From Patescibacteria group bacterium (GTDB taxonomy: Bacteria; Patescibacteriota; Minisyncoccia; UBA6257; 2-01-FULL-56-20), in the NCBI GenBank assembly GCA_018971305.1, contig JAGXBC010000001.1:98284-162283 (forward strand): a stretch of 64,000 nucleotides of DNA, given 5' to 3'. Each line of letters starts with the position of its first letter. The first letter of the stretch is position 1. Under the pieces are notes generated by a model. The model was not told the origin of the DNA. It worked only from the letters and a program-made list of their open reading frames with translations, and made no database searches. A program made the translations under genes and the position numbers. Of the stretch, positions 1,277-62,760 are shown in pieces.

Positions 1277-1310
<34 letters not shown>

Positions 1311-1428: not shown

Positions 1429-1469
<41 letters not shown>

Positions 1470-45286: not shown

Positions 45287-45358
45287 GCCCTCGTCGTTCA
45301 ACGGATAGGACGCAAGATTGCGGATCTTGTAATCGAGGTTCGATTCCTCGCGGGGGCA
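45287..45358 (+). tRNA. tRNA-Arg (anticodon GCG).
   Basis: GCCCTCG-TC-GTTC-AACGGATA-GGAC-G-CAAGA-TTGCGGA-TCTTG-TAAT-CGAGG-TTCGATT-CCTCG-CGGGGGC-A. Accessory DNA begins directly downstream. Confidence 0.75.
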
Positions 45359-45451
45359 CAAGCTAGTGAGACCCCTCTCGATACCGAGAGGGGTCGGTGC
45401 GTTGCCCAGCCTAAAATTGACAGAGGAAAAGGAAAGTAGAATATTTAATGC

Positions 45452-45988
45452 ATGCCAATTGGAAGCTCCTCAATTTCTTTATGGGGGATAGCCTCGTCAA
45501 TATTTGATCTTTACTGGACCGGCGAACTTATCTGGGCCGTAGTTATAATTGGGATAGCGACAATTCTTGCCTTCCGAGCGATTTACAGAAAAGAACGGAG
45601 ATTTATAAAAAACATTTCAAAAAGGTTTACTATTTTCTCGCTAACTAGCGTCAGCCTAGATGCCGAACTCGACCTTGTTAAACGGAGCGGATTATTCAAT
45701 GCGCCGGGTAAGATAGAAACGGATCAGCGAATTTTCGATGGCCTTGATAGAAATCAAGGCCTGCTCGTTCTTGCAATCGATGAAAAAACCAATGAACAGA
45801 CGTTCGAGCAAATTTACAGGAAAATAGAGGCATTGCGGAAGCCGGTGATCATCTACACCGCGGGCAACAGACAAATCCCTTGGCTGACTAGCGATTTACA
45901 CGCCTATTCTTTTTATACGATCGCAACGAGCCCCCTGAGATTGATGAGTGACATTTTTACAATCCTTTCCACATTCCCCAATGATTGA
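45452..45988 (+). CDS. Small two-TM protein with a ~110-aa C-terminal alpha/beta domain. Candidate membrane effector or sensor of the adjacent nucleotidyltransferase pair.
   Basis: 178 aa. TM helices at SLWGIASSIFDLYW and LIWAVVIIGIATILAF. The C-terminus has beta-alpha-beta-like segments (LLVLAIDE..., PVIIYTAG...). Its stop overlaps the start of the next gene. Confidence 0.5.
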   Translation: MPIGSSSISLWGIASSIFDLYWTGELIWAVVIIGIATILAFRAIYRKERRFIKNISKRFTIFSLTSVSLDAELDLVKRSGLFNAPGKIETDQRIFDGLDRNQGLLVLAIDEKTNEQTFEQIYRKIEALRKPVIIYTAGNRQIPWLTSDLHAYSFYTIATSPLRLMSDIFTILSTFPND

Positions 45989-47285
45989 GGAACTCCTCTC
46001 GCAATATATAAAGAAAACACTCTCGCCAGAAAGGAAAGAAAGGGAGAATGTTTCTGCTCGATATGAACAACTGCAAAAAATTTTCGGCGACTCAGCCGAA
46101 ATTTTTCAAATTGGTTCATACGTAAGATTTACGGCTATAAAACCAATTCACGATCTGGATGTAGTTTGGGTTTTGCCAGACGAAGTTCGCATCAAGAAAG
46201 CTATTAACCCAGAGAATTTCACTGCTAGTGGTGTTTTAGAAGAGTTGGCTCAGCAACTTGAAAATGAATACAAGAAAATTGGGGAGCGGCCATCAATTGA
46301 AGCTCAAACCCATTCCGTGGTGATTCGCTTTGGGAAAAATCTTGATTTTTCAATTGATGTGGTGCCTGCATTTAAAACGAAAGAAAAAAACGAATTTGGT
46401 TCTTTCATATATCTAGTTCCAGAAGGCGATCCCGTGCGCTGGATAAAATCAGATCCGCTCGGATATATTGAGGTTGCCAAGAAGTTAAACGAGAAAAACA
46501 ATTCCTTCAGGAAGATAACGAAATTTGTAAAAGGCTGGGAAAAATCACGTAGGAAAAATTACCCACTTATCGAACTGAAATCCTTCCATCTGGAAAACAT
46601 CGTCTCCGATCTGCTGCAGAAAAATCCTGACCTCAATTGCTACGAAGGCATCAAGAAGTTTTATCAGTCGCTCAGCGCATACCTGATTCCCCAACTCAGA
46701 GATCGCGCGGATGGCACCCGTTTTATCGATGATTATCTAAAAGACATTGACGCCTTCGATAAAAGAGAAATTGCAGAGCTTGCGCTTTTAGCTCAGAGGA
46801 CAATCTCAGAAATCGAATCATCGAGCGAAAAAGAAGACGTAATAAAGCTCAGCGAACGATTGGCGGATGCCAGTGATTTCGGCGAAGAATTTATTCAAAA
46901 ACAGGGAATCGCTTTCGTGCATAAAAAAGATTTACTTAAGTTGAGAGTTGACGGTCGAGTTACCGGAGAGGAAAGGAAGAGAGGCTCTTTCCGTGAATAT
47001 CTATTAAAAAATGCGGAGAATAGAGTTCGTGGCTTGGGAAGAAAAATTCATTATTATCTTTCCAATCCCAGAAACATTCCAGACGGTGCAGTGCTAAAAT
47101 GGAAGGTTAAAAATAGAATTAGTGACTATGCCAAGGAACATCCTCGAGGCGAAATCAGCAATCATGCCACAAAAAATGATCCGGAAGTCACGGCGTTTCG
47201 CGGGCAGCACTATGTGGATTGTTATCTCGTGAAAGATAGTAAAGTTCTAGGAATCGGGAGGCAATATTTGATTATTGAACTTTAA
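45981..47285 (+). CDS. cGAS/DncV/OAS-like nucleotidyltransferase (CD-NTase-like), paralog A.
   Basis: Pol-beta NTase catalytic motifs IGSYVRFTAIKPIHDLDVVWVL (GS...[DE]h[DE]h) and, downstream, FSIDVVPAF as the third acidic residue. A ~45-aa helical N-terminus and a large C-terminal helical domain. ~434 aa from MIEELL. Confidence 0.6.
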   Translation: MIEELLSQYIKKTLSPERKERENVSARYEQLQKIFGDSAEIFQIGSYVRFTAIKPIHDLDVVWVLPDEVRIKKAINPENFTASGVLEELAQQLENEYKKIGERPSIEAQTHSVVIRFGKNLDFSIDVVPAFKTKEKNEFGSFIYLVPEGDPVRWIKSDPLGYIEVAKKLNEKNNSFRKITKFVKGWEKSRRKNYPLIELKSFHLENIVSDLLQKNPDLNCYEGIKKFYQSLSAYLIPQLRDRADGTRFIDDYLKDIDAFDKREIAELALLAQRTISEIESSSEKEDVIKLSERLADASDFGEEFIQKQGIAFVHKKDLLKLRVDGRVTGEERKRGSFREYLLKNAENRVRGLGRKIHYYLSNPRNIPDGAVLKWKVKNRISDYAKEHPRGEISNHATKNDPEVTAFRGQHYVDCYLVKDSKVLGIGRQYLIIEL

Positions 47286-47291
47286 ACCACC

Positions 47292-48071
47292 ATGACGCAG
47301 GATCAGTATTTCGATTCGATTCTTGCGCGACACAACCCAGTTCCGCTCGGATTTTTTGGATCGCCCCTAAACATCGCTATTGATGCCTTAACTAAAGAAG
47401 CCCGAGCTTGGGGCGGGCACCACATTTCCAATATCGGTCTTTCCGGGTCATATGCGAAAGGGACCGCCATTTCCGGCCAGTCGGACGTAGATTTATTTAT
47501 TTCACTACACCACAACGTGATACAAGGAAACGTCACGCTCAAAGACGTGTATGAAAGCCTCTACAATTATCTGAAAAAATATGGCGCTCAAAAGCAAAAT
47601 GTTTCTCTGCATATAAAACATGGGAATGTCGAAATCGATCTAGTGCCCGCGGTCAGGCAGAACGTTTTGAGCAGCGACCATTCTTTGTGGAGTAATCGAA
47701 AACAAACCTGGCTGAAAACAAATGTTCTGACCCACATCAATACCATCAAATCTTCTGGGAGAAATAAGGAAATCCGAGCCACTAAAATATGGCGAAAACT
47801 TCATGGCTTAGATTTCCCTTCCCTCTACCTTGAACTTTCGGTTATCGAAGCACTTTCCAATCAGTACATCTTTTCTTTCCCTTCGCCAGCCGATAATTTT
47901 CTTAAGGTACTGGACTATTTTCAAGGTTCGTTTTTAACAGCGAAAGTTGTTGATCCCGCAAACACCAATAATGCAATTTCCGACGATCTAACTTTTCAGG
48001 AAAAGCAGAGCATAGCTCGCCAGGCAAAAATTTCCAGATCGCAACCAAACTGGAGCGGAATTATTTGGTAG
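47292..48071 (+). CDS. Minimal cGAS/OAS/SMODS-like nucleotidyltransferase, paralog B.
   Basis: LSGSYAKGTAISGQSDVDLFISL and VEIDLVPAV. The motif spacing matches paralog A. 259 aa. Confidence 0.55.
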   Translation: MTQDQYFDSILARHNPVPLGFFGSPLNIAIDALTKEARAWGGHHISNIGLSGSYAKGTAISGQSDVDLFISLHHNVIQGNVTLKDVYESLYNYLKKYGAQKQNVSLHIKHGNVEIDLVPAVRQNVLSSDHSLWSNRKQTWLKTNVLTHINTIKSSGRNKEIRATKIWRKLHGLDFPSLYLELSVIEALSNQYIFSFPSPADNFLKVLDYFQGSFLTAKVVDPANTNNAISDDLTFQEKQSIARQAKISRSQPNWSGIIW

Positions 48072-48102
48072 ATGCCCGCTAGGCAGAAAGGTATATTCGT
48101 CG

Positions 48103-49452
48103 CTATGAATCCTTTGTTTTCGCGAGCGTCAGTTCTTTATCCTTCAACACGAGTTTGCTCTTCAGTGATTCCAAAATCTCACGTTTCTCAATAAGCGTCC
48201 CGGATTTTAGGATATGCTTCGCGTATGCCCGCAGGTTGAATTCTTGATCTTTCGTCTCATCCTCTTCTTCGCGGATACCCAGGATGTTTTTATTGAAGCT
48301 CCGGTGCCGCTCGATCTCATCCCGCAGTTTCTCCTTGATTGCAAGCTCGTTCAGGTCAATCGTATCCATAATGTCGACGAGCTGATGGAGCACGCCATCT
48401 TCCTTGATGTAGGTGTTCTTGCAGTGCCGATCTTTGCTCCGCGAGCAGAGATAATAGACGTGGCGATTCGTGCCGCCGCCCTTGAGCTTCTTGAATTTCT
48501 CCATGGCAGTGATGCCCGATCCACAGGGACCACACGATATCAGATTGGTGAATGCCCACTCCTTTGCTTCACCACGCACATATTTATCCCGTGTGACGCG
48601 CTCGCGCGTTTTCTCGAAGAGTTCTCTTGTAATGAGGGCCTTATGCTGCCCGGTATACCAGTTGCCGCTCTTTCTCGGATATTCGAAGATGCCGTAGTAA
48701 AAAGTGTTTTCAAGGATAGTATAAATATTTCCTATTGAGAGATACTTGCCGTTTTTCGTTTTGAAATTTAGATCGAATCTGAGCCAATGGTAGAGCTTCA
48801 CGCCCGACCATTGTTCGTTCCCGATCTTCTCGAACATCTGCCGGATGACAGGAGCTCGTTCCGGATCGACGAGCAGCTGACACTTCCGATCCAGGCGCTT
48901 TTCCGACAAGTATCCTGTTGGCGTCGATGACGGCCATAGCCCCATCTCACAGCGCGTCCGCAGTCCTCGTTTCACATTTTCCGATTTGTTGTCGTTTTCG
49001 AGTTTCGCTTGGGAGCAAAGGATCATCAACAGGAATTTCTCGTTCGGCGAATTCTTGAAATTCTGCGTGTACGTCCTTATCTCTATGAGAAGCTTCTGAT
49101 CCATAAGGTCAACCAAGCTGCCGAGATCTCCAGCGTTTCTGCTTAACCGATCTGCTGCCCACGTGAGGATGCCCGTGTACCTTCCGCTCCGTAGGTCACG
49201 GATGATGTCGTTGAACACGGGGCGGGTGCCCGAGTCTTTCGCCGAGTGGGCCTCGCGCCGGATGTCCACGATCTCGAGCGTATCCCGTTCGGCGATCCGC
49301 AACATCTCCTTTACCTGTGAATCGATAGAAAGGGCTTGCTTCTCATCCTGTTCGGTTGATTTCCTCGCGTAGAGCACGTATTTGACCTTTTCCGGCTGCT
49401 GGACGCTCGTGGGGGCCCCAGCTGCCATCAGCCCCATGGTTTGGTTGGTCAT
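48103..49452 (-). CDS. Large serine recombinase (integrase).
   Basis: 449 aa. N-terminal resolvase catalytic domain (YARKSTEQDEKQALSIDSQ with the Ser nucleophile, LTWAADRLSRN), a recombinase domain, and a zinc-ribbon C-x2-C...C-x2-C region. Confidence 0.8.
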   Translation of the reverse strand: MTNQTMGLMAAGAPTSVQQPEKVKYVLYARKSTEQDEKQALSIDSQVKEMLRIAERDTLEIVDIRREAHSAKDSGTRPVFNDIIRDLRSGRYTGILTWAADRLSRNAGDLGSLVDLMDQKLLIEIRTYTQNFKNSPNEKFLLMILCSQAKLENDNKSENVKRGLRTRCEMGLWPSSTPTGYLSEKRLDRKCQLLVDPERAPVIRQMFEKIGNEQWSGVKLYHWLRFDLNFKTKNGKYLSIGNIYTILENTFYYGIFEYPRKSGNWYTGQHKALITRELFEKTRERVTRDKYVRGEAKEWAFTNLISCGPCGSGITAMEKFKKLKGGGTNRHVYYLCSRSKDRHCKNTYIKEDGVLHQLVDIMDTIDLNELAIKEKLRDEIERHRSFNKNILGIREEEDETKDQEFNLRAYAKHILKSGTLIEKREILESLKSKLVLKDKELTLAKTKDS

Positions 49453-49574
49453 ACCCTAAGGGATGACGCGATCTCCCTAGAAAGTCCAGACCTTCAAAGG
49501 CCGCCGAAACGCTCGTTTAATGCTTCCCCAGATTGTGCCACTCTCGCTATTAGCCGGGAGGTGGATTAAAATCG

Positions 49575-50291
49575 TTAGACCATTTTTTGCATTAGCAATT
49601 GTGTCGCAATGTTGAAATATAAATATTCCTCCTTGGATAGTGCTTCGTTGTGCTGAATCCTATTACGATACTCTGCTAATTCCGCAAGTTTTCCGGCAAT
49701 CACAAATGTGCTAGGAAATCTACCTCTAAACAAATCACGATTATTCTTGTCGCCCATAATATGGGAGAAATCTTTAATTCCTGCCGCTGAAAAAAGCTCT
49801 TCTGGGTGGCCACCTGGCTTCCACGAAGCATGCCTCGATTTCCAATATTGCGTTTTAAGTATTTCGTATGTCGTTTCATCCAGATGCTTCTCCCAACTAC
49901 TGCCGTAGACATCTTCAAAAACATCGGCGTACAATTTTCTCAACGCTTCTTCGAGTAATCGAATGTTCTTTCTTGCGGTAGTCAACCTTGTTAGCTCAAA
50001 AGGATCTATCTGTATAGCAGCCTTTTTTCGCAAGACAATCGGTTCGTCTCCAGGTAGCCTTTTCCCCCAAAAGACATCGCCATCTTCATCAATCTCCTTT
50101 TTTAAGACACCCTTTCGATACATAGATTTCAAAGCGATAAGCACAGCGCCCTTCTTCTTATCTCCGGCCTTCGCTATGCCATGTTTTTTCCTCGCAATGG
50201 CAGAGAGGAGGGTTTCTTGAGAAACCCATTCCTTATCAAACATCTCTATCTTAATCAATTCTTGATAGTTAGTAGCCATTATACGGTCCAC
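49575..50291 (-). CDS. HEPN-domain protein (Swt1/Abi-like).
   Basis: 238 aa with a C-terminal R-x4-H motif (RNRIQHNE), the HEPN RNase signature. It overlaps the upstream gene by 13 nt. Confidence 0.5.
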   Translation of the reverse strand: MDRIMATNYQELIKIEMFDKEWVSQETLLSAIARKKHGIAKAGDKKKGAVLIALKSMYRKGVLKKEIDEDGDVFWGKRLPGDEPIVLRKKAAIQIDPFELTRLTTARKNIRLLEEALRKLYADVFEDVYGSSWEKHLDETTYEILKTQYWKSRHASWKPGGHPEELFSAAGIKDFSHIMGDKNNRDLFRGRFPSTFVIAGKLAELAEYRNRIQHNEALSKEEYLYFNIATQLLMQKMV

Positions 50292-50791
50292 GCGAATTTT
50301 TTGATTCGACCTGGGTGTTTAACAGATGACGCGACATATAGATATCTAAAACCCCTAGATCCAGGGCACACGCTCTTGCAAAGATTGACCGAATCTAGCA
50401 GCTTTCGCTCACCCTTTTTCCCTTCCTTATAGGTTGTTACAAAAAGACGGAACTCGGCGATGCCAACCGTGAGCTTCCGAAAATCTTTTAATATATTATC
50501 ATCGTCATTCTGCCTTTCAATCTCGGAGATTAATTTTAATCCCTTTAGATCCCGCCAGTTTTTCCCGAGATCAGCCCAACAAAGATCGAAAAGCCATTCA
50601 CCACTATCGGTATTAAGTTTTTTGGGACCGGATGCAAAAACTTTGTAGTCAAGTTTGTGCCCTAGATTGGTCAAAGACTTCTTTATTGAAAAAGTCCAGG
50701 CCGCCGAGCTTTCCCTATTCTCGTTTTTGCGTCCAGCATGCCGAATCACAGCTACCATTTTATCTTCTATTGGGAAAGAATTTGTAGGCAT
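50279..50791 (-). CDS. Hypothetical protein, co-transcribed partner of the HEPN protein.
   Basis: 170-aa ORF that overlaps the HEPN gene start. Confidence 0.4.
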   Translation of the reverse strand: MPTNSFPIEDKMVAVIRHAGRKNENRESSAAWTFSIKKSLTNLGHKLDYKVFASGPKKLNTDSGEWLFDLCWADLGKNWRDLKGLKLISEIERQNDDDNILKDFRKLTVGIAEFRLFVTTYKEGKKGERKLLDSVNLCKSVCPGSRGFRYLYVASSVKHPGRIKKFAWTV

Positions 50792-50803
50792 GAGGCTAAG
50801 GGT

Positions 50804-51199
50804 TTATAAAAGCCGTGCCGCTGCTTGCACGCTTTTGTCAAAGTTTTTATCGAACTGATGTTCCCAAAATCTGGTTACCCGCCAACCCTTACTTCTCAAT
50901 GCTCGGTTTACGATTTTCGCTCGCTCCTTATTGCCGCGAATTTTTTTCTGCCAATAGCTCCGTTGTGATTTTGGCATTCTACAGTGCCACCTACAGCCGT
51001 GCCAAAAGCACGAATCGAGAAAAATAACCGACTTTTTTCTCTTGGAAACGATGTCCGGCTTTCCAATTAAACTCGCGTGTTGCTGAAACGACTTTCCTTG
51101 TTTCTTCAGGGCTTTGACGATCCCTCTTTCGAGTCTAGTATTCTCGGAACGAATGAGAGACATCACCCCTGAGCGTTGCTTCTTAGTTAGGGTGTCCAT
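50804..51199 (-). CDS. vsr: Very-short-patch repair endonuclease.
   Basis: 131 aa with the Vsr signature IFLDSCFWHGC and a downstream His. Confidence 0.8.
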   Translation of the reverse strand: MDTLTKKQRSGVMSLIRSENTRLERGIVKALKKQGKSFQQHASLIGKPDIVSKRKKSVIFLDSCFWHGCRWHCRMPKSQRSYWQKKIRGNKERAKIVNRALRSKGWRVTRFWEHQFDKNFDKSVQAAARLL

Positions 51200-51202
51200 A
51201 AA

Positions 51203-51712
51203 TTAGGTGCTAAAAACAGTTTTCGTCTGCGAAATGAGATCTTGACTCAAGATGAGATACCAAGCTCGCATCCTCTTTTGCCACTTCCGAAATTTCAGGA
51301 ATTGATCCCATGTAATCTCGATGACTTTCTTGGGTTGGTAGGTCTTATCGATCAAGACAACGATAACGTATTCAAATTTTTTCTCAGGCTGCTGTTCGTC
51401 TTGATCCCCGCAACCATAGAACACACCCGTGACATTCCCTGGTTCAGAGATCGTCTTAACGCTGTAGCGCTCTCCCTTTCTGCTCAACGCATCCACGTTT
51501 TGCGTTCCTTCAGGAGCCGCCTGGAGTTTCGGCAAACTCGGCACTTCATTGTAAATTTTTATTGCCAAAAATTCTCCTCGCTCGCCGACGATGTTCCGCG
51601 TTCTCACTAATCCGCGCTCTTTCAATTTAAGTCCTATATAGGGATAGATGGTCCACATCTCCTCATCGGATAGATTATTAATCTCCCTTTCGAGATCTTC
51701 AATTTTAGGCAT
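51203..51712 (-). CDS. Hypothetical protein between dcm and vsr (possible nuclease or specificity component). The start is set at an internal ATG to give an 8-nt overlap with the dcm stop.
   Basis: The ORF is open from 51847, but upstream of 51712 it would overlap dcm by 142 nt. Confidence 0.4.
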   Translation of the reverse strand: MPKIEDLEREINNLSDEEMWTIYPYIGLKLKERGLVRTRNIVGERGEFLAIKIYNEVPSLPKLQAAPEGTQNVDALSRKGERYSVKTISEPGNVTGVFYGCGDQDEQQPEKKFEYVIVVLIDKTYQPKKVIEITWDQFLKFRKWQKRMRAWYLILSQDLISQTKTVFST

Positions 51713-52934
51713 TGGATTGTCGTTTCCGCTTCGCGGCCAAAACGCGTTCTCCGAAATGTTCTGCAAAGACTTTTGCCAATAAAGGCGGCACCGCGTTCCC
51801 AACGTGTTTTTGTTGCGTATCCATCTTTCCGTAAAAAACGAAGTCATCGTCGAATGATTGAAAGCGAGCCGCTTCTCTCACTGTGATAGCGCGATTGCTT
51901 TCGTAATGCAGGAAGCGGCCGGATCCCGGATTCAGAAAGTGAGCGGTGATAGTTTGGGCTATACCGTCGCGATGCAAACGGCCATAAGCTTGACTGAAAT
52001 ATTCCTGATCTCGCTTTCGATCAAAGCGGCTATTCTTGGGTAAATCTTTATTACTCGACCCCTCTTCGATTTTGTTGATTTTTATCAAGAAGTCTTCTCC
52101 GTGGGATCGTGCCACGTGGTTACAAAGAATCTTTGCTCGTTGCCTGCGGGATGCTTGGTAATCCGTAAATGGGGCGGCGGCATACCCGGTCGCTTCTTGG
52201 CCAGCCTCAATACGCGGTAAGTCGCCGATGGCATCCTCCACAGAAATATACGGCGTTAAAATAGTTCCGAAATCATCCAAGGCAACTTCTTCCAAAATGT
52301 CCTTCGCAAAAGGCAATTTCTTATATCGTAACGGAGGAAAGTCGAGCGGTACGTCGGCAGCATACTTATTTTGAACCGCTGCTATGAGTAAGCGCTTTCT
52401 GAGCTGTGGAACTCCGTAATCATGCGCGATGACCACCTGCATATTTGAGCTATAGCCCATTTTTTCAAGCTCCTCTCGGATCTCGACGATAAATTTGCCC
52501 TTTGCGTATGATGCTGCATTTGGGACGTTTTCGATAAGGACGAAGATGGGTTTCAGCAATCCGACAAAGCGCAAGAATTCTTTCATCAACCTATTGCGCG
52601 GATCGTTGATAATGCGGTCGGATCTATTGGCGGTGAGCGCGGAGAATCCTTGGCATGGCGGTCCACCAACTAGGAAATCGAGTTCTGCCCCGCCGTTTAG
52701 CAGAGCGTTCTTGCGCAATGTTTTCTCATCAAGTTTTCCGATATCGGCCCAGAGGTAAGGCACTGATGGCCTATTTCTCTTGAAGGTAGTGATTGCGTCA
52801 GCATCATGATCGACCAATAAGACTGGTTGGAGTCCCCAATCTTTCGGTAAAAGCGCTTTGCAAAATCCTTCCGTTATACCTCCGACGCCAGCGAATAGGT
52901 CTATGAACGTAAGGGTATGCGCTTCTCTTTTCAT
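51705..52934 (-). CDS. dcm: DNA (cytosine-5)-methyltransferase.
   Basis: 409 aa. Motif I is DLFAGVGG, motif IV is GGPPCQGFS, motif VI is ENV. Confidence 0.9.
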   Translation of the reverse strand: MKREAHTLTFIDLFAGVGGITEGFCKALLPKDWGLQPVLLVDHDADAITTFKRNRPSVPYLWADIGKLDEKTLRKNALLNGGAELDFLVGGPPCQGFSALTANRSDRIINDPRNRLMKEFLRFVGLLKPIFVLIENVPNAASYAKGKFIVEIREELEKMGYSSNMQVVIAHDYGVPQLRKRLLIAAVQNKYAADVPLDFPPLRYKKLPFAKDILEEVALDDFGTILTPYISVEDAIGDLPRIEAGQEATGYAAAPFTDYQASRRQRAKILCNHVARSHGEDFLIKINKIEEGSSNKDLPKNSRFDRKRDQEYFSQAYGRLHRDGIAQTITAHFLNPGSGRFLHYESNRAITVREAARFQSFDDDFVFYGKMDTQQKHVGNAVPPLLAKVFAEHFGERVLAAKRKRQSNA

Positions 52935-54820
52935 AGTTGATTGTTTGGTTCTATTACTTCGTTACTTTTAGATGCCGCCGCAGCTTTCGCGGTTATTTTT
53001 CCGTTAGAGACAAATTTTTCATGGAAAAGAAATGGCTCGAGTTCCTTCGTCGCAGAGTCATGCAATCGCTTGGAAACCTCGTCGAATTTATTGTCGATCT
53101 CGTCGGCGGTTAATTGGGTTCCCCGTTTTTCCATCTCGTGCACGGTTTGCTTCAAAATGATGTCCACGTATCTTTGAAACATATACTCGCGCCACCGAAC
53201 ATGTTCCGTCCCGTAATCCTCGCGGATTTTATGCGCGAGCGGGGCCTGAGTATTAATCCAATACACATTGTGTTCGTAGTCGGCACGGCGCTGATAAACA
53301 AGAGGGTGGCGTGCGTCGCAGTTTACCGTATTGCCCGGACTAAGCGGATCATCGTCAGAGTTAGAAAGGAGAACAAGCGGAAATTTATGGCCTTTGCTTT
53401 TTTGATCTCCAGAACCACTTCCTTCGGTCGTCGATCCGCCATCGCCCTCAGTCTCTCCCTTGCCCATCCCCGCTCCTTGTCCTTCTCGCAGTCCGCCCGC
53501 ATCTCCTGGGTTTGTGCCCGCAAAGATTTCTCCATAAACTTGCGACATAAAACCATTTTTCCATCGGTTCAGAAAATCGTTAAATATCGAGGTGTTCTTA
53601 AGATCAATCTGTTGCTGCTCGAGCTTGGTCCGCTCAACCATTTTATCGGTTAGATCGTTTATTCGTTCGCAAATCCACCAAAGTAGAGCGTCTGTAAGTT
53701 CGGTTTTGGCGAGATGTTCTCGGTCATTCAGCACCAGGTCATTATCAGGGTCCTCTAGAATGGGACACTCACACTCGCCGTATACAAATTCGGTCATTTC
53801 GGAGTTCCGCAAAGCCCCTCCCAGCTCGCTGATCTTATATGACGCGATAATGCCAATATCTTTGCTTTTAAAGTTGATGCAATTGAGCGCGGCGCGATCC
53901 CCGTATCGGTTAAAAGGTTCCTCTGAGGTGAAGAGGGTCAATCCTCCCTTCGGAAATTTTTCGTTAGCTAATGCCACATATTCCTTGCCATACGGCAATT
54001 GCTCTGGAATTTCAAAGGTTACGGGATCTTCGAATCCAAACTTCGGCTTTATAACCTCCGGCTCGAGACGCATGAGATCGCCATTGTCCAGCACACCGTA
54101 CACCAATTTCGTTTGCACGATATTTCGCGCCTGAGGATGAACCCGCAAGCGGTACAGTAAGTTGTTATATTTTCTCATCCCGACATTTTCCGGCTTGGTG
54201 CCACTAATCACAGTGAAGCGGATGTCCTTAAGACGGAATCGTTCCTGAAGCGCGTCCGTTTCGGGGAGTTTCAAAAGCTGGGGGATCAAATCAGCGATGC
54301 CAGCTATCTTGAATGCTTCTTCCGGTTTTACTTTTTTATCTTCAAATCCATTTAAGAAGCCATAGTCTTTGTCCTCGTCGAATCCAAAGATGTTCAGATG
54401 ACCATTGCGATACGTGATGAATCGGCTCGTCTGAAACATCTGGCGCATATAGAATTTTCCGCCGTTTCCATGTCCGCCGTACGTTTTCAACTCTTTCAGC
54501 CCCTGCTTTGCAGCCATGCGATCGAACCAGCGAGCGAAATTATCGTTGATGACCTTGTGTGTTGTTCCTGAAAAATCTATACATTCGAAACGAATTGGGT
54601 CTGTTTTGGTCTTGCTTCGGAACCGAACCACAATGACTTGCTCGGAATCTGGAATGTGAATTTTCTGCGCGGCCCCGTCCCTTAAGTAAGCGTCAACAGA
54701 GTTTTTGAGCCATTCCGCGAGCCCCTTTACATGATCGAATCTGAAGCTCTTGCCAAACATGTCAAGCGCGCTCTTCGCGTCTATGACGGCTTCGATCTTA
54801 TTGATCTTGGGATTTTTCAT
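52931..54820 (-). CDS. GHKL-superfamily (histidine-kinase/MutL/MORC-like) ATPase with a long C-terminal region.
   Basis: An N-box-like AEWLKNSVDAY, a G1/G2-like NGDLM...G.G, and a C-terminal Gly/acidic low-complexity linker. ~629 aa from an internal ATG. The ORF is open to 54883, but that would overlap the upstream gene by 62 nt. Confidence 0.55.
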   Translation of the reverse strand: MKNPKINKIEAVIDAKSALDMFGKSFRFDHVKGLAEWLKNSVDAYLRDGAAQKIHIPDSEQVIVVRFRSKTKTDPIRFECIDFSGTTHKVINDNFARWFDRMAAKQGLKELKTYGGHGNGGKFYMRQMFQTSRFITYRNGHLNIFGFDEDKDYGFLNGFEDKKVKPEEAFKIAGIADLIPQLLKLPETDALQERFRLKDIRFTVISGTKPENVGMRKYNNLLYRLRVHPQARNIVQTKLVYGVLDNGDLMRLEPEVIKPKFGFEDPVTFEIPEQLPYGKEYVALANEKFPKGGLTLFTSEEPFNRYGDRAALNCINFKSKDIGIIASYKISELGGALRNSEMTEFVYGECECPILEDPDNDLVLNDREHLAKTELTDALLWWICERINDLTDKMVERTKLEQQQIDLKNTSIFNDFLNRWKNGFMSQVYGEIFAGTNPGDAGGLREGQGAGMGKGETEGDGGSTTEGSGSGDQKSKGHKFPLVLLSNSDDDPLSPGNTVNCDARHPLVYQRRADYEHNVYWINTQAPLAHKIREDYGTEHVRWREYMFQRYVDIILKQTVHEMEKRGTQLTADEIDNKFDEVSKRLHDSATKELEPFLFHEKFVSNGKITAKAAAASKSNEVIEPNNQL

Positions 54821-54821
54821 G

Positions 54822-55424
54822 TTATTTTTGGGGGATGATAGTTTTAAATTTTTCATCAGTAAGTAAATATTTATTAAGATCATTCAAGATTTTAAACCGA
54901 GGATTGCCCGAAAAGATGCGTCGAGCGTTTTCGATCGCGGAGCTGATGACCGCAATACGACCCAAAAATTCGTTTTTGCCAGTTCGAACCGTCACGCTGT
55001 AAAACGCGTAGATGTCGCTATCCAAAATTTTCTCCTTTTCGCCGCCTTCATAAAGCTTGAAGGCGTCTGATTGAAATAATTTATCGGCTTCTGCCTGCTC
55101 GTCTCTGCCGAGCCGCTCTGTTCGAGTTTTCTCCACCTGGTCGCCGCTAATTTTTGAGACGAGAGGCCCAATGTAAGCAAGGCCATGTTCAGTAAGCGAA
55201 AAGAATTTATTTGCCGTTCTAATAAAACCCTTGCTTTTCAAAGGTCCATAAAGTGGCTTATGAATATCCGAAGAATCGGGGTATTCGTAACCGCGCAGAC
55301 TGAAATCCTCTGGAAATTTTTTCCACACCGCGACAACGATGTCCTCGTATTTAAGGGGCTTCGTCGATCCCTGCGATAGGTCGTACATAGCAACTAGTAT
55401 TTTGTCGCGAACTGATAACGCCAT
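54822..55424 (-). CDS. Hypothetical protein (possible wHTH), first large gene of the GHKL-Dcm-Vsr cassette.
   Basis: 200-aa ORF with translational coupling to the GHKL gene. Confidence 0.4.
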   Translation of the reverse strand: MALSVRDKILVAMYDLSQGSTKPLKYEDIVVAVWKKFPEDFSLRGYEYPDSSDIHKPLYGPLKSKGFIRTANKFFSLTEHGLAYIGPLVSKISGDQVEKTRTERLGRDEQAEADKLFQSDAFKLYEGGEKEKILDSDIYAFYSVTVRTGKNEFLGRIAVISSAIENARRIFSGNPRFKILNDLNKYLLTDEKFKTIIPQK

Positions 55425-55429
55425 TTGGG

Positions 55430-55675
55430 TTATAGTTTAAAGTCTTTGTTTTTAGGATAGTGAAATTTCGCTTTGACGTCTTTTACACGTCGATCGATTT
55501 CGGAAAATATTTTGTTGATATCTTCTTCGGTGTATTCATATGCGCTGCGATTAGAACAGTTTCCAAGAACTTTCAACCGCCGGAGAATGGCGTTGGTTCT
55601 AAGAGTCGCAAGCCTTTTGAACCTTTCTCTCTTCGCTTCTTTCGGGAAATTTTTTTCCATATATTCTATATACAA
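55430..55675 (-). CDS. Small hypothetical basic protein.
   Basis: 81-aa ORF, 5 nt upstream of the next gene on the same strand. Confidence 0.35.
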   Translation of the reverse strand: MYIEYMEKNFPKEAKRERFKRLATLRTNAILRRLKVLGNCSNRSAYEYTEEDINKIFSEIDRRVKDVKAKFHYPKNKDFKL

Positions 55676-55895
55676 TAGGATACCTTTATTTGCAAGGGCG
55701 ACACATATGTACTTATAGTAATGCGCTATTTCAAAAAGTCAAGTTTGCGTTGGGGATAAACATCCCGATGCCGGATTCCATCGTCACATTGATTTTTCAT
55801 AATAACTCATTTTCCGAGCACTTTCATAGATTGAATATTAGATCTCACAACTTAAAACTCCTCTTCGCGAGGAGCTTTAAGTTTTTCTTTTTCTC

Positions 55896-56477
55896 TTACT
55901 GCAGCTGTATGTCCACCGGCTGCCCAAAGGAAAAGAGCGGCTGGTAATGGAGAATCATCTTCGCAGTGGCATTACTCGGCACCTCGAAGACCATATCTCC
56001 CGTGACGCTGCCGCCGGGGGCAAGTTCGCTGGCCGCCGAGTCAAGCTTGTTGAGCCCTATACCCGCCGTGATTGCTTCATCGTGCAGGGCACCGTTCGCA
56101 TCCTGCAGCTTGAAACCCCACATGCCGGAGACGCTCAAATTGCCCGTTCCTTGATTCGTCATCGATACCGTGACGACCACGAAGACGTCGCTTGGGTTCT
56201 GCGGCGTGTCAAACTGGTTGGAACTGTGCCAGTTTTTGTTCACCTTCGTGACCGAGAGCACCGTATCGCCCTGCTTGATCTGGTCGCCGACGTTGAAAAC
56301 CTGCGGCTGGTTACTTGGCGCTTGCGCTCCGGCGGTCGTATTTCCGTTTTCGCCGACCTTCTGCGGGGCACTATTACTCCCGCTCACTCCCGCGATGATA
56401 AGGATCACGATAACGACCAAGCCCCAGAACCACCACTGCTTATAGAATTTCTTTTTTGGCTTTTCAGAGTTTTCCAT
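55896..56477 (-). CDS. DUF4352-like membrane-anchored beta-sandwich protein.
   Basis: MENSEKPKKKFYKQWWFWGLVVIVILIIAGV is a TM anchor followed by a soluble domain. The ORF is open to 56534. Confidence 0.45.
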   Translation of the reverse strand: MENSEKPKKKFYKQWWFWGLVVIVILIIAGVSGSNSAPQKVGENGNTTAGAQAPSNQPQVFNVGDQIKQGDTVLSVTKVNKNWHSSNQFDTPQNPSDVFVVVTVSMTNQGTGNLSVSGMWGFKLQDANGALHDEAITAGIGLNKLDSAASELAPGGSVTGDMVFEVPSNATAKMILHYQPLFSFGQPVDIQLQ

Positions 56478-56663
56478 AGTATTAGCTGTTTTTATTTCGA
56501 CCTTTCGGGATTTGCTATTTTCTTCCCAAAACAATTGATGACGCCTGGGCGGCGGAAGTCCATAGCCTCAAAACCGCCGCGCTGGCTTCACGAATCGCGC
56601 CAGACTGACCACTCCAGCTTATCATAATATCTAAAATTTGGATATTGGTTTTCTGGATATAGC

Positions 56664-56894
56664 GTGAGAGGTATGGTGAAATCAATCCAGACGAAGGAAT
56701 ATGCCCTGCTCGTGGAACGACTGCGAAAGGCGAGGATAGGAGCCGGGCTTACCCAGGCGCAAATCGCCAAGAAGATCGGACGACCGCAGTCCCATATTTC
56801 GAATATTGAATCGGGGCAGCAACGGATTGACGTAGTCGAGTTGAAACGGTTCGCGGAGTTGTACGGGAAAAACATTAAATTCTTCATAAAGTAA
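56664..56894 (+). CDS. XRE-family helix-turn-helix transcriptional regulator.
   Basis: ...LTQAQIAKKIGRPQSHISNIESGQQ... is a classic Cro/C1 HTH. 76 aa. Confidence 0.75.
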   Translation: MRGMVKSIQTKEYALLVERLRKARIGAGLTQAQIAKKIGRPQSHISNIESGQQRIDVVELKRFAELYGKNIKFFIK

Positions 56895-56962
56895 GCAAGG
56901 TGGTCTCCAATGAAAAAAGAGCATCTCGTAGATGCTCTTTTTTCTACCGCTGCGGTTCCGTC

Positions 56963-57685
56963 CTATTTCGGCCGCGGTCCTTGCCACGATGGCCGATAAC
57001 CATCTTTCGGCACCTCGAGGCGCGGAACGGGCGCAAAGACCTGCGGGGTCACTGTGATCGTACCGCTGTCGCTCGGCGGGTTCGTTGGGTTCGCCCTCGG
57101 CAGGAGATCGATTGGCTTAGTCGTGTCATTCGAACGTGGCGCAGGCGGCGCCGATTCGGTTGCCGGTAGCTCCTGCGATGACGTGCCCGAGGGATCGCTC
57201 TTTGCGCCGCCCGCGATGATCCCGCGCAACGCCGCCGGAATCGGTTTCGCCTTCGGCGCCGGGATGCTGATCCTCGGCAATGCCGTGCCTGATGGCGATG
57301 ACGATTCCTGCCTGCCCGCTTCCGCTTGGGCATCAGCGGGAGGCTTCGCGCCTTGGCCGGCACTTGCGCTTGCAGAGGCCGACTGCCGCAAGAGCAGCGG
57401 GTTCACTTCGTCCCGCATCTCCCATGTCGGCATGCCAATGGCGAGGGCGATGTCGTTGTAGGGAATATCCACGGTAAAAGGGTCCGGAGCGATATCCGTC
57501 TTCGGGTCGGTGCTGACCGCTTGGATGTCGAGGTGCCTCGTCGGCGGTTCTTGCGCCGTTGTTGTAACCTCCGGTTGCTCCGCTTCCGCTTCACTTGCGG
57601 CAACTGCCTGAGCTTTACCGCCTATGAGCCATTCGCCGAACCGAACAAAGAAGCGTCCGGCCAAATTCAATATGTTGTTAAACAT
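56963..57685 (-). CDS. Hypothetical Ala/Pro-rich protein at the distal end of the GC-rich phage-like segment.
   Basis: 240-aa ORF in a ~60% GC region. Low-complexity sequence. Confidence 0.4.
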   Translation of the reverse strand: MFNNILNLAGRFFVRFGEWLIGGKAQAVAASEAEAEQPEVTTTAQEPPTRHLDIQAVSTDPKTDIAPDPFTVDIPYNDIALAIGMPTWEMRDEVNPLLLRQSASASASAGQGAKPPADAQAEAGRQESSSPSGTALPRISIPAPKAKPIPAALRGIIAGGAKSDPSGTSSQELPATESAPPAPRSNDTTKPIDLLPRANPTNPPSDSGTITVTPQVFAPVPRLEVPKDGYRPSWQGPRPK

Positions 57686-57699
57686 GATTGAAAATATAA

Positions 57700-59322
57700 T
57701 TAGGTTTGGTCGACCTTTGGTTCCGGTAATGGTGGCGAAGAAGTGGGGCGCGAGCCAAAGCCTTGCGCGGAAGCATTGTCCAGGAGATCAATGGGATCAA
57801 CGGAATAACTTTCGGCGGGCTTGGAGCTGCGGTTTTTGTCGCCGCAGACGGTTTCAATTTCGCCGGTATCCAGGTCAAGCGTCCACATGCCCGCGAATTG
57901 CACGTCCTGGCCGATCGTGGCGTGGGCGAGAATCGTAAACGCGTCCACTTGATCGTCGTAGCGTTCCACGCCGAATCCCACGAGCTGCTGCTCAAGGGTT
58001 TCCGTCCGCGGCTTTTGGGGAAAAAGAATCCTGCCGATGCGGATGAGGCCCGCCACCGTGGAAAGCCGGGCGCGTTTGTCGGTTGTGGCCGGGACCCCGA
58101 TCACCGGGAGCCCCATGGCGGCGAGCCGCTCAATGAGCATCTGCTGGTACTGCACCTTCTCAATGCGCAGTTCAACAGCGCCGTAGAGCGCGGCGTATTT
58201 CTCATAGAGCGCCTTCAGGGCGTTCACGACGTCTTCGGAGTTCATGCGCCGGTTCACCGTCTCTATGATGTAGGCACGGAACGCGTCCCCGTGGCCCGCG
58301 AAAAGGCCCACCGCGATCCCGGTATAGTCCGCGCTGCTTTTCGTGCTGATCGCGGGGTCGCAGGCGATCACCACTTTCAGGATCTCCTTCGCGGGAAGTT
58401 CGCTCCAACGCTGGAACCAGTCCGGGAAGACGAGCCGGTCCTCGTTCGCAATAATGCGGAGACCGTACTCGCGTTCCCAGGTCGCCTCGTCGCCGATTTT
58501 CTTTTTGAACGCGTCAAGCGATTCCGCCGTGGGGAATTTTTCCGGCCACTGGCAGACGCCTTCGTCGTCCACGAGCGGAAAGCGGCGGAAGACGCCCCTG
58601 CGGTCGCCTTTCACAATCTGTTCCTTGAGGCGGCCGAGGAGCGAATATTCATTCAGGAAATTCCCGAGGACGTACACCTTCGTTTCGGGCGTGCCGAGGG
58701 GAATGATCTCGGAGTTAAAGAATTCATACGTTTGATCGCGCGATTCCTTCACGCGGGTGTTCTGCAAATTTTCGAGGTCGTCACAGATAATCAGGTCTGG
58801 GCGGTAATGCCGGTAGCGCAGTCCGCGCACCGCCTGCTCCGAGGAGAGCGCGACGATCCGCGCGTCAAATTTCTTGAATGTCATCCCGAGCGCGGTGCGT
58901 TCGTCGCCGTCCATGTCGATCGGTCCGAAATCGTTGCGGAGCAGCGGCGATGCGAGCGCCATGCGGATGTTTGAGAAGTGCTGTTTTGACTGGTGCAGGG
59001 TTTCACTGATAATCGTGATAAAGTGCGCCCGGCCGCTCAGAATTGACCACAGGGAGAGCGAGGTGTTGAAGATGGCGGACTTCCCGCTGTTGCGAAAACC
59101 CGCCACGATGCAGAGGTCGCTCGCATTCGCTTCCGTGAGCGCGAACATTTCCTTGTGGAATTGTCCCATCGGGTCCTTGAGGTAGTCCGCCAAATAGATG
59201 TTGAAGAAGAGCGGGTGCGACCACTGGCCGAGCTTGCGCCGCAAAAGGCGGCTCTTCCGAATGACATCAATGAAGAAATTGAACTTGTCTGCGTTGTTGC
59301 TGGGGGCTGGTAAAAGATTCAT
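57700..59322 (-). CDS. Phage terminase large subunit.
   Basis: 540 aa. Walker A-like AGFRNSGKS, Walker B LIICDDLEN, and a C-terminal RNaseH-like nuclease region. Directly downstream of a small-terminase-like gene. Confidence 0.7.
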   Translation of the reverse strand: MNLLPAPSNNADKFNFFIDVIRKSRLLRRKLGQWSHPLFFNIYLADYLKDPMGQFHKEMFALTEANASDLCIVAGFRNSGKSAIFNTSLSLWSILSGRAHFITIISETLHQSKQHFSNIRMALASPLLRNDFGPIDMDGDERTALGMTFKKFDARIVALSSEQAVRGLRYRHYRPDLIICDDLENLQNTRVKESRDQTYEFFNSEIIPLGTPETKVYVLGNFLNEYSLLGRLKEQIVKGDRRGVFRRFPLVDDEGVCQWPEKFPTAESLDAFKKKIGDEATWEREYGLRIIANEDRLVFPDWFQRWSELPAKEILKVVIACDPAISTKSSADYTGIAVGLFAGHGDAFRAYIIETVNRRMNSEDVVNALKALYEKYAALYGAVELRIEKVQYQQMLIERLAAMGLPVIGVPATTDKRARLSTVAGLIRIGRILFPQKPRTETLEQQLVGFGVERYDDQVDAFTILAHATIGQDVQFAGMWTLDLDTGEIETVCGDKNRSSKPAESYSVDPIDLLDNASAQGFGSRPTSSPPLPEPKVDQT

Positions 59323-59326
59323 GTTT

Positions 59327-59731
59327 TTATTTTTGGATCATGAGGTTTATGTAATTTGCGGGGAATCCTGCTAAGCGGAGCGCTTCGCGAAGGAGTTCGA
59401 CTTCTTCGGGAGTCAACTCTTCGCGCAGATCAACGGTCCCTGAAAGCTCCAGCCGGTTGCGGTACTCGTCCTTGTTGTTCTTGAGCCAAAAAATGGCTGC
59501 ATTCAGTTTCCCTTGTTTGATCGCCTGGATAATTTGACTCTCCGCCGCGTCGTTCACGAGGTTCTTGCCGTCGAGCTGCGCTTCGTCGGCCTCCTTCGCG
59601 AACGCGGGGTCCTCCTGCTTGCGGCGGTAGAACGTCCGCCTGCTGATGCCCGCCTTCGCGCACGCCGACTCTATGACCGGCGACCTCCGCAGCGCGTCGA
59701 GAATGATTTGTTTTTCTTCGTCGCGGGTCAT
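59327..59731 (-). CDS. Phage terminase small subunit-like DNA-binding protein. The start is set at an internal ATG, and the ORF is open to 59869.
   Basis: MTRDEEKQIILDALRR...GISRRTFYRRKQ is an HTH. It abuts terL, and its start overlaps the stop of the upstream gene at 59731. Confidence 0.55.
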   Translation of the reverse strand: MTRDEEKQIILDALRRSPVIESACAKAGISRRTFYRRKQEDPAFAKEADEAQLDGKNLVNDAAESQIIQAIKQGKLNAAIFWLKNNKDEYRNRLELSGTVDLREELTPEEVELLREALRLAGFPANYINLMIQK

Positions 59732-61065: not shown

Positions 61066-61224
61066 GGTATTAATAGATTATTTTTTGTCGACATTTTTAT
61101 TTTTATTCAACCATGCACAAATCATCCCGGTGGTTCTTGCTATTTCCTGCTGCCCGCCAAGAGAGCAATAAAAACGGGCCGCATTGGCGGCTCATTTTGC
61201 CTATTCACAAACAACCAGCAAGAA

Positions 61225-61833
61225 TCAGGTTTCTATCACGAGACCCTTGCCGGGCACCGTCCGAATGAGGGGCGATCCATCAGGACGATTGAGGGGAAAT
61301 TTGATCTTCTGTCGCTTGCGCTTGTGCTTCAATGTAGTGAGCGCGTTCGCGATGCGCTGGCGCTGAACCTTTTTGTCCTCCGCGAAACGCCGCCTCCCAT
61401 GGTGTTCAAGATATTCATAAAGGTCATCGTATGATAAAAATCCGCCTGCGTCCGATTCCTGCAAGAGCGCTTTTACGACAAGCACGTAATCCGCCATCGG
61501 ATCAGGGAAGTCGATGAGCTTGCCTCGGGTATAAAAATTATCGTCACGATATTCAAGGAGAGCCTCTTTCGCGTGTATGGTTTTTCCCGTGCCCGCGCGG
61601 ATGGCCCTGATAGAAGCTTCATCTAAATGAACGGGCTTTGAAAGGACGGGGAAGAATTTAATCGGCTTCGGGTTCAACATCTCCTGAAGTCTCTTAGCCC
61701 CTTCATTCAAAGATTTCAAGTGCGGCTCGAGATATACCGTGCTTAGCTCAGCCATTGCCTTTTTACCCTCCGACGTTTGTCGCCATTCGCGGGCCGTCAT
61801 CTGGGATTTACCTTTTTTCTTCATCGCGCGCAT
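61225..61833 (-). CDS. Hypothetical protein (phage-associated).
   Basis: 202-aa ORF. Confidence 0.35.
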   Translation of the reverse strand: MRAMKKKGKSQMTAREWRQTSEGKKAMAELSTVYLEPHLKSLNEGAKRLQEMLNPKPIKFFPVLSKPVHLDEASIRAIRAGTGKTIHAKEALLEYRDDNFYTRGKLIDFPDPMADYVLVVKALLQESDAGGFLSYDDLYEYLEHHGRRRFAEDKKVQRQRIANALTTLKHKRKRQKIKFPLNRPDGSPLIRTVPGKGLVIET

Positions 61834-61916
61834 GTCATAATTTTACCAATGTTCAGGGGTGTATGCCATTTGCGCCAGATCAAGCCCTCATCCAAACATG
61901 CTGCTATAATTTATTC

Positions 61917-62552: not shown

Positions 62553-62568
62553 GCGGCTCGTTTAGAGT

Positions 62569-62743
62569 CCGAAAACCCTTGCTTTTCTTTTGAATGGCAC
62601 AGCGGGATGGCATATGAGAAAGTCACCCTGTGCAGTGCCATTTGTGCCATTTTATGGAATTAAGTCCAGCTCGTGGGGCACCCTACAAGAGAGAAGAAGG
62701 GTGCGATCTTCCAAAACCCTTGTTTTTCCGTTAGAATGAACGC
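62569..62743. repeat. Imperfect ~30-nt direct repeats with an internal palindrome, between HAD and the second recombinase gene. Candidate recombination (att) or regulatory site.
   Basis: 62569-62600 (ccgaaaacccttgcttttcttttgaatggcac) against 62710-62743 (tccaaaacccttgtttttccgttagaatgaacgc). Also an inverted pair aatggcac...gtgccatt at 62593-62650. Confidence 0.4.
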
Positions 62744-62760
62744 TACCGAGGGAGCTGTTT

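Follow-up and report, generated by a model that had tools for sequence, protein, structure and literature searches.

The window analysed here, a stretch of 64,000 nucleotides from a Patescibacteria genome (assembly GCA_018971305.1, contig JAGXBC010000001.1, positions 98,284 to 162,283), holds a tRNA-Arg(GCG) gene followed by a hairpin, three genes and the gene of a large serine recombinase (LSR). A preliminary description of this region, made from the letters alone, had taken it for a compact ~4-kb integrative element closed by the recombinase. We recovered all the parts that it had named (the tRNA-Arg(GCG), the hairpin at 45370-45395, the three plus-strand genes and the convergent LSR), yet we found that 45360-49493 is, with a probability that we put at about 70%, the tip, on the tRNA side, of a larger mobile island integrated here. 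This island would span at least 15.7 kb and probably about 16-17.5 kb (roughly 45.3-62.8 kb). Going by gene order, it belongs to a large family built on a backbone of a ParB-methylase, the terminase subunits TerS and TerL, and the LSR. Comparison of loci indicates that the family has two variable slots with differing anti-phage genes: slot B, from the LSR stop codon to the tRNA junction, and slot A, from TerL to the LSR. The features on which this reading is built are the following.

45287-45359, plus strand: tRNA-Arg(GCG) (ARAGORN call; Rfam tRNA, 58 bits)
45360-45405, plus strand: element-borne end sequence, CAAGCTAGTGAGACC and then the hairpin
45370-45395, plus strand: hairpin with a perfect 11-bp stem, GACCCCTCTCG/CGAGAGGGGTC (dG -24.5 kcal/mol)
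48103-49452, minus strand: LSR (integrase), 449 aa (Pfam Resolvase, Recombinase and Zn_ribbon_recom)
49453-49493, minus strand: conserved LSR leader, made of CTGGAC, a small hairpin and TTGCGTCAT...ATG
49575-57685, minus strand: slot A, the second variable cargo slot between TerL and LSR; 8.2 kb separate the backbone from the LSR
57700-59322, minus strand: TerL, backbone module
59327-59731, minus strand: TerS-like protein, backbone module
59731-61065, minus strand: ParB_N + N6/N4 DNA methylase, backbone module
61066-62859: probable right-end zone, with a 202-aa unknown (61225-61833, minus strand) and a HAD hydrolase (61917-62552, plus strand)
62761-64000, minus strand: second, different LSR (Pfam Recombinase and Zn_ribbon_recom), cut by the window end

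The left junction at tRNA-Arg

The host is a Paceibacteria-like member of the Patescibacteria, or Candidate Phyla Radiation (CPR). Upstream of tRNA-Arg are genes for the type IV pilus, for a ComF-like protein and for a 156-aa protein. The relatives of the PilM protein in species-representative genomes were all metagenome-assembled genomes of Patescibacteria/Paceibacteria (48-69% identity), and the order PilM, ComF, 156-aa gene, tRNA-Arg(GCG) is retained in most Patescibacteria relatives. About 20 of these, none of the same species, offer the empty tRNA-Arg site that the preliminary description had proposed to look for: they lack the island and have a tRNA-Gly(GCC) 155-2940 bp past tRNA-Arg. 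ARAGORN found no tRNA-Gly in the window after tRNA-Arg up to position 64000, the genes past tRNA-Arg and tRNA-Gly in the relatives have no homologue anywhere in the window, and no host gene reappears there before at least 61 kb. Conversely, these relatives contain no homologues of the genes at 45452-63939, with the sole exception of the closest one, L006. Since the relatives' site is empty and their downstream genes and tRNA-Gly are missing here, the foreign region should run from the tRNA to the end of the recognisable island genes. By this comparison foreign DNA starts directly at the tRNA-Arg 3' end, as had been proposed (the relatives carry the same tRNA without these genes), then passes 49.5 kb and reaches at least 61 kb. 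As would be expected of a tRNA-integrated island, it has no counterpart in relatives at the genus or family level. In L006, an LSR 56% identical to that of the window is convergent with tRNA-Arg and 120 bp away, with no cargo between. Integration recurs at the same tRNA in different lineages, namely in the window, L006 and L113.

The sequence right after the tRNA belongs, judging from other loci, to the element. CAAGCTAGTGAGACC and the hairpin are nearly identical in L045 and L046, whose LSRs (P0001 and P0002) are 95% and 90% identical to that of the window and which both lie at other chromosomal sites; overall, the element-end sequence is ~97% conserved between loci at different sites. It sits after a tRNA-Arg(CCT) by prfB, ftsEX and ATP synthase genes in L046, and after a tRNA-like fragment only in L045. 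After tRNA-Arg(GCG) in the ~20 LSR-free relatives it is missing; the LSR-free L011 and L033 have a degenerate version. Being shared at other tRNAs and missing at LSR-free sites, this sequence is best explained as element-borne, and other LSR subfamilies each share their own flank across different tRNAs. The hairpin starts ten bases past the tRNA and is significantly stable (z = -4.1; 0 of 200 shuffles fold as well), with no T-tract after it. The region 45360-45405 probably serves as the P' arm of attL, as a terminator of tRNA-Arg, or as both. Comparison of loci identifies tRNA-Arg(GCG) as the host gene, integration target and left junction, with the attL region at ~45335-45405. Under the proposed mechanism, the LSR would integrate the element at, or inside, the tRNA 3' end. 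In the integrated state its gene would stand at the tRNA-side end, reading towards the tRNA, and the element would supply the sequence that follows the tRNA, here the 11-bp hairpin.

In the gap that separates the intact tRNA from the LSR, L045 (12422-12480) and L079 (10118-10141) hold extra tRNA 3'-end-like fragments, and the one in L045 resembles the tRNA-Lys of the same locus. Their sequences suggest scars of successive integrations, the crossover falling within the T-arm region of the tRNA. What lies left of the end motif in L045 has no counterpart in the window, where the element-end motif occurs in a single copy. A scan of viral contigs for a free attP form, using the exact hairpin motif, gave no match.

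An integrase family with a terminase backbone

The LSR is full length, convergent with both tRNA-Arg and the cargo, and matches the phrog_95 integrase (4e-62). Its YxRKS motif (Y25, Y28, R30, K31, S32) is invariant in 31 homologues. With the three domains and the catalytic serine in place, 48103-49452 is by its sequence a phage-type LSR. The preliminary description had already called it a large serine recombinase, and its relatives also adjoin tRNA genes.

To place it in its family we collected 80 metagenomic and 69 IMG/VR loci with LSR relatives of at least 40% identity, with flanks limited to 10 kb; single-protein scans of viral contigs (with the LSR and with the short cyclase described below) found nothing, and an alignment query worked. 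The family counts more than 8000 matches at E<1e-30 and more than 100 at 61-68% identity. Matches with a source name come mostly from Patescibacteria or its subgroups, and one from Caldisericia. The distribution of tRNAs around the LSR is strikingly one-sided: over 83 loci, none was found in 405,288 bp of 5' flank vs 59 in 370,722 bp of 3' flank, and the first tRNA on the 3' side was convergent with the LSR in 40/40 loci. The tRNA species include Gln, Ser, Trp, Asp, Arg, Lys, Val and Asn, and also Glu in the viral set. Since 405 kb of 5' flank hold no tRNA, this side of the LSR does not look like ordinary host DNA.

What lies there is the backbone. Among the 80 loci whose 5' flank reaches 6 kb or more, 49 carry TerL (45 of them on the LSR strand) and 50 the ParB-methylase. 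The order across the family is ParB-methylase, TerS, TerL, LSR, the same order and strand as in the window, and the same backbone is found at at least eight kinds of tRNA. Hence the recombinase does not close a compact ~4-kb element; it is the last gene of this module, as in 49/80 loci. The preliminary description had allowed for a recombinase that belongs to a neighbouring element, and this turned out to be right in a modified form: the LSR is part of a larger element, which includes the cargo.

Both slots vary widely. In 16 of the 45 same-strand loci fewer than 350 bp separate TerL and LSR, and slot A ranges from 30 bp to 9.3 kb. Slot B is empty (83-202 bp) in 12/40 loci and has 1-13 genes otherwise; a Pfam census of 83 slot B proteins returned mostly restriction-modification, PLD nucleases, Shedu, reverse transcriptases and SNF2 helicases. 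In L045 slot B holds SIR2 together with a 317-aa gene; L046 has an APH-like kinase there. Because cargo differs in this way between the shared end sequence and the LSR, the genes found there in the window, which encode an anti-phage system that signals through cyclic oligonucleotides (CBASS, see below), should lie inside the element, in a variable slot. An independent locus, L214, shows a comparable arrangement of tRNA-Gln, a homologue of the CBASS effector (44% identity), a cyclase with an AGS-C domain and a convergent LSR (57% identity). Upstream of the ParB-methylase, a census of 105 proteins in relatives gave restriction-modification, OLD/AAA_15, GmrSD, a Thoeris TIR protein, CBASS with SAVED or Cap15, and LexA/S24-type repressors (7/105). 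Portal, capsid and tail families were absent from the top 25 of this census, as portal, capsid and tail genes were from 49.5-64 kb of the window.

Four loci (L050, L055, L106 and L115) have, 5' of the LSR, a second conserved gene set on the opposite strand, with clusters c5 (~504-595 aa), c6 (~810-1060 aa), c10 and c36-c40. It replaces, or adds to, the terminase module, which suggests another backbone type using the same LSR family.

The integrase leader

The 41 bp upstream of the LSR might have been expected to hold the partner of the tRNA-side att arm. This leader is conserved in ~60 related loci whatever their tRNA or tRNA-side flank, although the sequence of its hairpin varies between loci (e.g. 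CTCTCTAGAGAG or CCCTAGNGGGG). The tRNA-side flanks, in contrast, fall into unrelated subtypes. Since a single protein binds both arms of an attachment site, these should change in step, and a leader that stays conserved while the flanks are unrelated is not the partner att arm. Across 39 loci, the tRNA flank and the LSR upstream region shared no repeat beyond what mismatched pairs of loci share, and we discarded a pairing of the two as attL and attR. The leader is better read, from its conservation pattern, as a regulatory element at the edge of slot A; it may control the integrase at the level of translation or as an operator. Pairing is possible between its TCAT and the ATGA at the LSR start codon.

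The right end

The right end probably lies between 61.1 and 62.9 kb. We place it there because the backbone ends at 61065, because a second LSR follows, probably in tandem, and because Logan assemblies break at 62859. Logan contigs from independent short-read assemblies of three runs (L001-L005, L212 and L213) are 100% identical to the window. Two samples show a break at 45316/45323, in the tRNA-Arg anticodon loop, and two show one at 62859; the ends of one contig fall precisely at 45323 and 62859. Assembly graphs commonly branch at tRNAs, and a break inside one is weak evidence. For the break at 62859, no repeated k-mer of at least 13 nt was found that would explain it. The second LSR starts 1.7 kb past the backbone and is ~37% identical to the LSR of L006 (itself 56% identical to the first LSR); it probably belongs to a neighbouring tandem element. 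We also considered that it lacks a catalytic domain, and ruled this out: its frame is open to base 64000, so that the catalytic domain must lie beyond the window.

Some related contigs indeed carry two LSR units, 16-37 kb apart. In L127 the repeat unit is ~12 kb; we rejected the idea that this contig is a circular genome since its ends are not identical (93% over 438 nt), and read it as a tandem pair.

The preliminary description had proposed searching past the recombinase for a repeat of the tRNA 3' end. Probes of 36, 22 and 24 nt with up to 4 mismatches, and local alignment of both strands, recovered nothing in the island but the tRNA itself, and 40 related loci showed no tRNA 3'-end direct repeat within 10 kb. 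To our knowledge, serine recombinases do not create such repeats, so this negative result does not discriminate between a short and a long element. No att sequence, attR or tRNA-like fragment was recognised right of the LSR, including in 61066-62859, and a fragment at ~62655-62680 picked by eye as a tRNA 3' end was no better than shuffled sequence.

Alternative explanations

Several observations weigh against a larger island. There is no empty site of the same species, the nearest relatives being only 60-69% identical in PilM. On the right side we have neither an attR nor a host flank, and the boundary rests on the backbone, tandem analogies and contig breaks. With TerL missing from 31/80 loci with enough flank, the backbone falls short of being universal. 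The nucleotide similarity to L045, L046 and L006 breaks off 37-41 nt upstream of the LSR start. Neither capsid nor portal nor replication genes turned up, and the element may be a decayed relic. As for the cargo, its CBASS activity, its signal molecule and the role of its second cyclase are all inferred.

Among the alternatives, the one that survives best, albeit as an unlikely one, is a fixed chromosomal defence hotspot in the spacer from tRNA-Arg to tRNA-Gly, a place that collects defence genes and the debris of dead prophages, at which the CBASS arrived by other means and the LSR and terminase are relics that no longer move. The variable length of this spacer in relatives, the missing capsid, tail and replication genes, the degenerate flank motif without an LSR in L011 and L033, and the presence of a second LSR nearby would all be in line with it. 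It is harder to reconcile with a full-length LSR whose catalytic motif is invariant, with a family of this size, with a single backbone at so many kinds of tRNA, and with an end sequence this well conserved between loci at different sites. LSR intactness, family size, tRNA range and end conservation point, as far as sequences tell, to recent and active movement. In this neighbourhood we also observed that the block of 156-aa gene, tRNA-Arg and tRNA-Gly is inverted and 6-9 kb from ComF in six relatives (L011, L015, L018, L021, L022 and L025), which marks it as rearrangement-prone, and that L012 and L031 have inserts of 2.4-2.9 kb between tRNA-Arg and tRNA-Gly.

A self-contained mini-element of ~4.1 kb (45360-~49493), with the CBASS, its own integrase and an unrelated phage-like region beside it, is closest to the preliminary description, and we consider it very improbable. 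It would account for homology that ends just upstream of the LSR, for cargo that differs between hairpin and LSR among loci with otherwise 90-95% identical LSRs, and for an LSR just 120 bp from the tRNA in L006. Nevertheless, 45 loci, at many different tRNAs, link the LSR to TerL, TerS and the ParB-methylase, all on one strand. Host DNA should carry about one tRNA per 6-20 kb, against none in the 405 kb surveyed, and the tRNA-Gly expected just beyond such an element is missing. On the far side of the LSR, L045 has genes in common with the window (HEPN and a 170-aa gene), subfamilies with unrelated tRNA-side flanks keep the leader, and repeats between flank and leader do not exceed chance.

That the island is a complete temperate phage, with structural genes beyond the window and an integrated map circularly permuted so that the terminase adjoins the integrase, would fit the presence of TerS and TerL, the many family contigs listed as viral in IMG/VR and the contigs with paired LSR units, but stands little chance against the 105-protein census of defence genes and repressors without portal, capsid or tail in its top 25, the L127 repeat unit of only ~12 kb, and the different LSR so near the backbone in the window.

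A type I CBASS with two cyclases

The preliminary description had expected an anti-phage cargo, which proved correct: all three proteins encoded between the tRNA and the LSR match PADLOC CBASS models. The operon is laid out as follows.

45417-45445, plus strand: promoter-like site upstream of the operon, TTGACA, 17 nt, AATATT (consensus match only)
45452-45988, plus strand: CBASS effector, membrane protein of 178 aa (PADLOC TM-effector model C3a59, 3.5e-14)
45981-47285, plus strand: CD-NTase 1, 434 aa (Pfam SMODS 8e-16, AGS_C 1.6e-13; PADLOC Cyclase 5e-91)
47292-48071, plus strand: CD-NTase 2, short, 259 aa (Pfam SMODS 2.4e-9; PADLOC Cyclase PDLC00803 1.4e-78, full length)

The start of CD-NTase 1 is that of the Logan gene call; the mechanical open reading frame begins with GTG at 45948. 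Effector and first cyclase overlap by 8 nt, 6 nt separate the two cyclases, and 31 nt lie between the convergent stop codons of the second cyclase and the LSR. The two nucleotidyltransferases of the preliminary description are therefore more specifically CD-NTase cyclases. CD-NTase 1 joins a SMODS nucleotidyltransferase to a C-terminal AGS-C (Ig-like) domain, for which a role in modifying phage sensing has been proposed. Its catalytic GS...DLD...D aligns with the nucleotidyltransferase of PDB 6p8u, and its sequence comes closest to E. coli CdnC (6p80) and the 6p8u/6p82 cyclases. CD-NTase 2 has no sensor domain, and its GS...DVD...D aligns with the CD-NTase of PDB 9sa4. Only three open reading frames lie between tRNA and LSR, and none is an ancillary gene of the Cap2/Cap3, HORMA/TRIP13 or Cap9/Cap10 type. 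Cyclases with catalytic motifs, an operonic effector and no ancillary genes lead us to classify the cargo, from its gene content, as a type I CBASS with one membrane effector and two cyclases.

The effector had been described as a small protein with two transmembrane segments. It is a membrane protein, but the second segment is uncertain: a single strongly hydrophobic segment was found (residues 26-44, Kyte-Doolittle 2.45), and the one preceding it is weak. In its AlphaFold2 model (pLDDT 80.8) the protein has a long helix at the N terminus and an alpha/beta domain with four strands. This C-terminal CheY/flavodoxin-like domain is, going by the model, the presumed sensor of the cyclic oligonucleotide; no C-terminal beta-barrel receptor domain of the Cap15 type was found in the protein, and a sequence search against PDB gave no usable match. 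The effector also matches, more weakly, a PADLOC model of a membrane protein from type III CRISPR operons, and in the loci compared its homologues always adjoin a cyclase or Cas10. One homologue (27% identity; L217, 1-4534) lies, in divergent orientation, beside Cas10 and a RAMP protein. From these associations the effector family appears to serve both type III CRISPR and CBASS signalling.

As expected from what is known of such systems, phage infection would lead one or both CD-NTases to make a cyclic oligonucleotide, which would bind the cytoplasmic alpha/beta domain of the 178-aa membrane protein; the signal-bound effector would then damage the membrane and abort the infection. Our best guess by analogy for the most likely signal is cyclic oligoadenylate, because the effector family occurs near Cas10 and the long cyclase is similar to those of 6p8u/6p82 and to CdnC.

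The two cyclases of the operon belong to different clusters. The closest homologues of the short one (65% and 59% identity) stand in two-gene operons with an effector of 177-178 aa, 55-57% identical to that of the window, and a 4-nt gene overlap. Other effector homologues (L091, L214 and L216) pair with an AGS-C cyclase only. Seen against these operons, the three-gene layout looks like a merger of effector plus short cyclase with effector plus AGS-C cyclase. We found no description of a two-cyclase CBASS in the literature searched, which is weak evidence of novelty.

Comparison with known systems

The window resembles known type I CBASS in having SMODS cyclases with intact GS/DxD/D motifs, an AGS-C fusion (CD-NTase-AGS-C fusions occur in ~40% of type I CBASS operons; bioRxiv 10.1101/2023.05.21.541620) and an adjacent membrane effector. 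It differs in pairing two cyclases with one effector, where the nearest relatives are two-gene operons, and in the CheY/flavodoxin-like alpha/beta domain of this effector, where Cap15 has a beta-barrel.

Defence genes beside the integrases of satellites and prophages are well known. Phage satellites, such as phage-inducible chromosomal islands (PICI), P4-like elements and PICI-like elements (PLE), carry defence hotspots, and PLE uses a large serine recombinase (PMC9638900, PMC10085698). Like them, the island of the window is small and has its integrase at one end, packaging genes and defence slots beside the integrase; LexA/S24-type repressors are found among its family members. Unlike them, it resides in a CPR host, combines a ParB-methylase and both terminase subunits with an LSR in its backbone, targets a tRNA 3' end and, as known from genes alone, has no recognised replication or capsid-remodelling genes.

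Islands integrated at tRNAs are a classic theme, and typically use tyrosine integrases. The window shares with those a start at the tRNA 3' end, an integrase on the tRNA side and cargo between integrase and att site; it departs from them in that the recombinase is a serine one and in the lack of a tRNA 3'-end direct repeat at the far end. Integration of serine recombinases into tRNA genes 'is rare', the examples being phage phiRSM1 (tRNA-Ser) and eight actinomycete integrative and conjugative elements (AICEs) of Mycobacterium (tRNA-Leu) (PMC3218068). There, too, the 3' end of a tRNA gene has a serine recombinase associated with it, but the family of the window is very large, occurs at many tRNA species, is mostly found in Patescibacteria and is convergent with the tRNA in 40/40 loci.

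As a single instance, defence cargo beside an integrase gene at a tRNA is ordinary in kind, and the family is the more notable finding. Little is known of the mobile elements and immune systems of CPR bacteria, whose genomes are tiny. Tentatively, and with somewhat less than even confidence, we propose that Patescibacteria hold a very large undescribed family of small satellite-like islands with terminase but without capsid genes. Their LSRs would have specialised on tRNA 3' ends of many kinds, usually the domain of tyrosine integrases, and the islands would act as modular defence carriers with an exchangeable slot on each side of the integrase gene. The member in the window would add a two-sensor CBASS, with two unrelated CD-NTases serving a single membrane effector of a CARF-like family shared with type III CRISPR. 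What sets this family apart is the combination of tRNA-directed serine integrases, a terminase backbone without virion genes, two slots and a CPR host range; neither the family nor this combination of four features was found described in the literature searched. If the picture holds, defence islands could be found by looking between a tRNA and a convergent serine recombinase, and the family would provide a large natural set of serine integrases with predictable tRNA-based targets, which are sought for genome engineering. It would also offer a natural case of two cyclases and one effector in which to test whether CBASS pools several phage sensors, and allow testing whether one effector family serves CBASS and type III CRISPR.

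Slot A and other features of the window

Slot A of the window contains further candidates for defence functions:

49575-57685, minus strand, contents: HEPN_Swt1 protein, 170-aa protein, Vsr, C5 cytosine methylase, 240-aa unknown, 641-650-aa and 200-aa unknowns, DUF4352 protein
51203-51712, minus strand: methyl-directed type II restriction endonuclease-like gene (PADLOC mREase_II, 4.6e-55)
56673-56894, plus strand: HTH_3 protein

The HEPN, 170-aa and 214-aa genes are common to the window and L045, on the same side of its LSR. The HEPN_Swt1 protein matches the candidate system PDC-M34B. No family match was obtained for the 170-aa, 641-650-aa and 200-aa proteins of 49575-55424, and the unknowns of this region could be part of an undescribed defence system. 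The backbone genes that follow have a GC content of 0.51-0.57 vs 0.45 in host genes.

Far from the island, the match to the 23S rRNA model (1167-4963, minus strand) extends over 3797 nt vs 2925 nt of the model, an insertion of ~870 nt, and a 159-aa open reading frame (2257-2736, minus strand) lies inside this insertion-bearing match. This extra sequence could represent an intron or homing-endonuclease insertion such as CPR rRNA genes are reported to have. Next to it, at 5036-5108 on the minus strand, ARAGORN called a 'tRNA-???' with the two-base anticodon 'gc', and Rfam scored the same stretch as a normal tRNA (58 bits).

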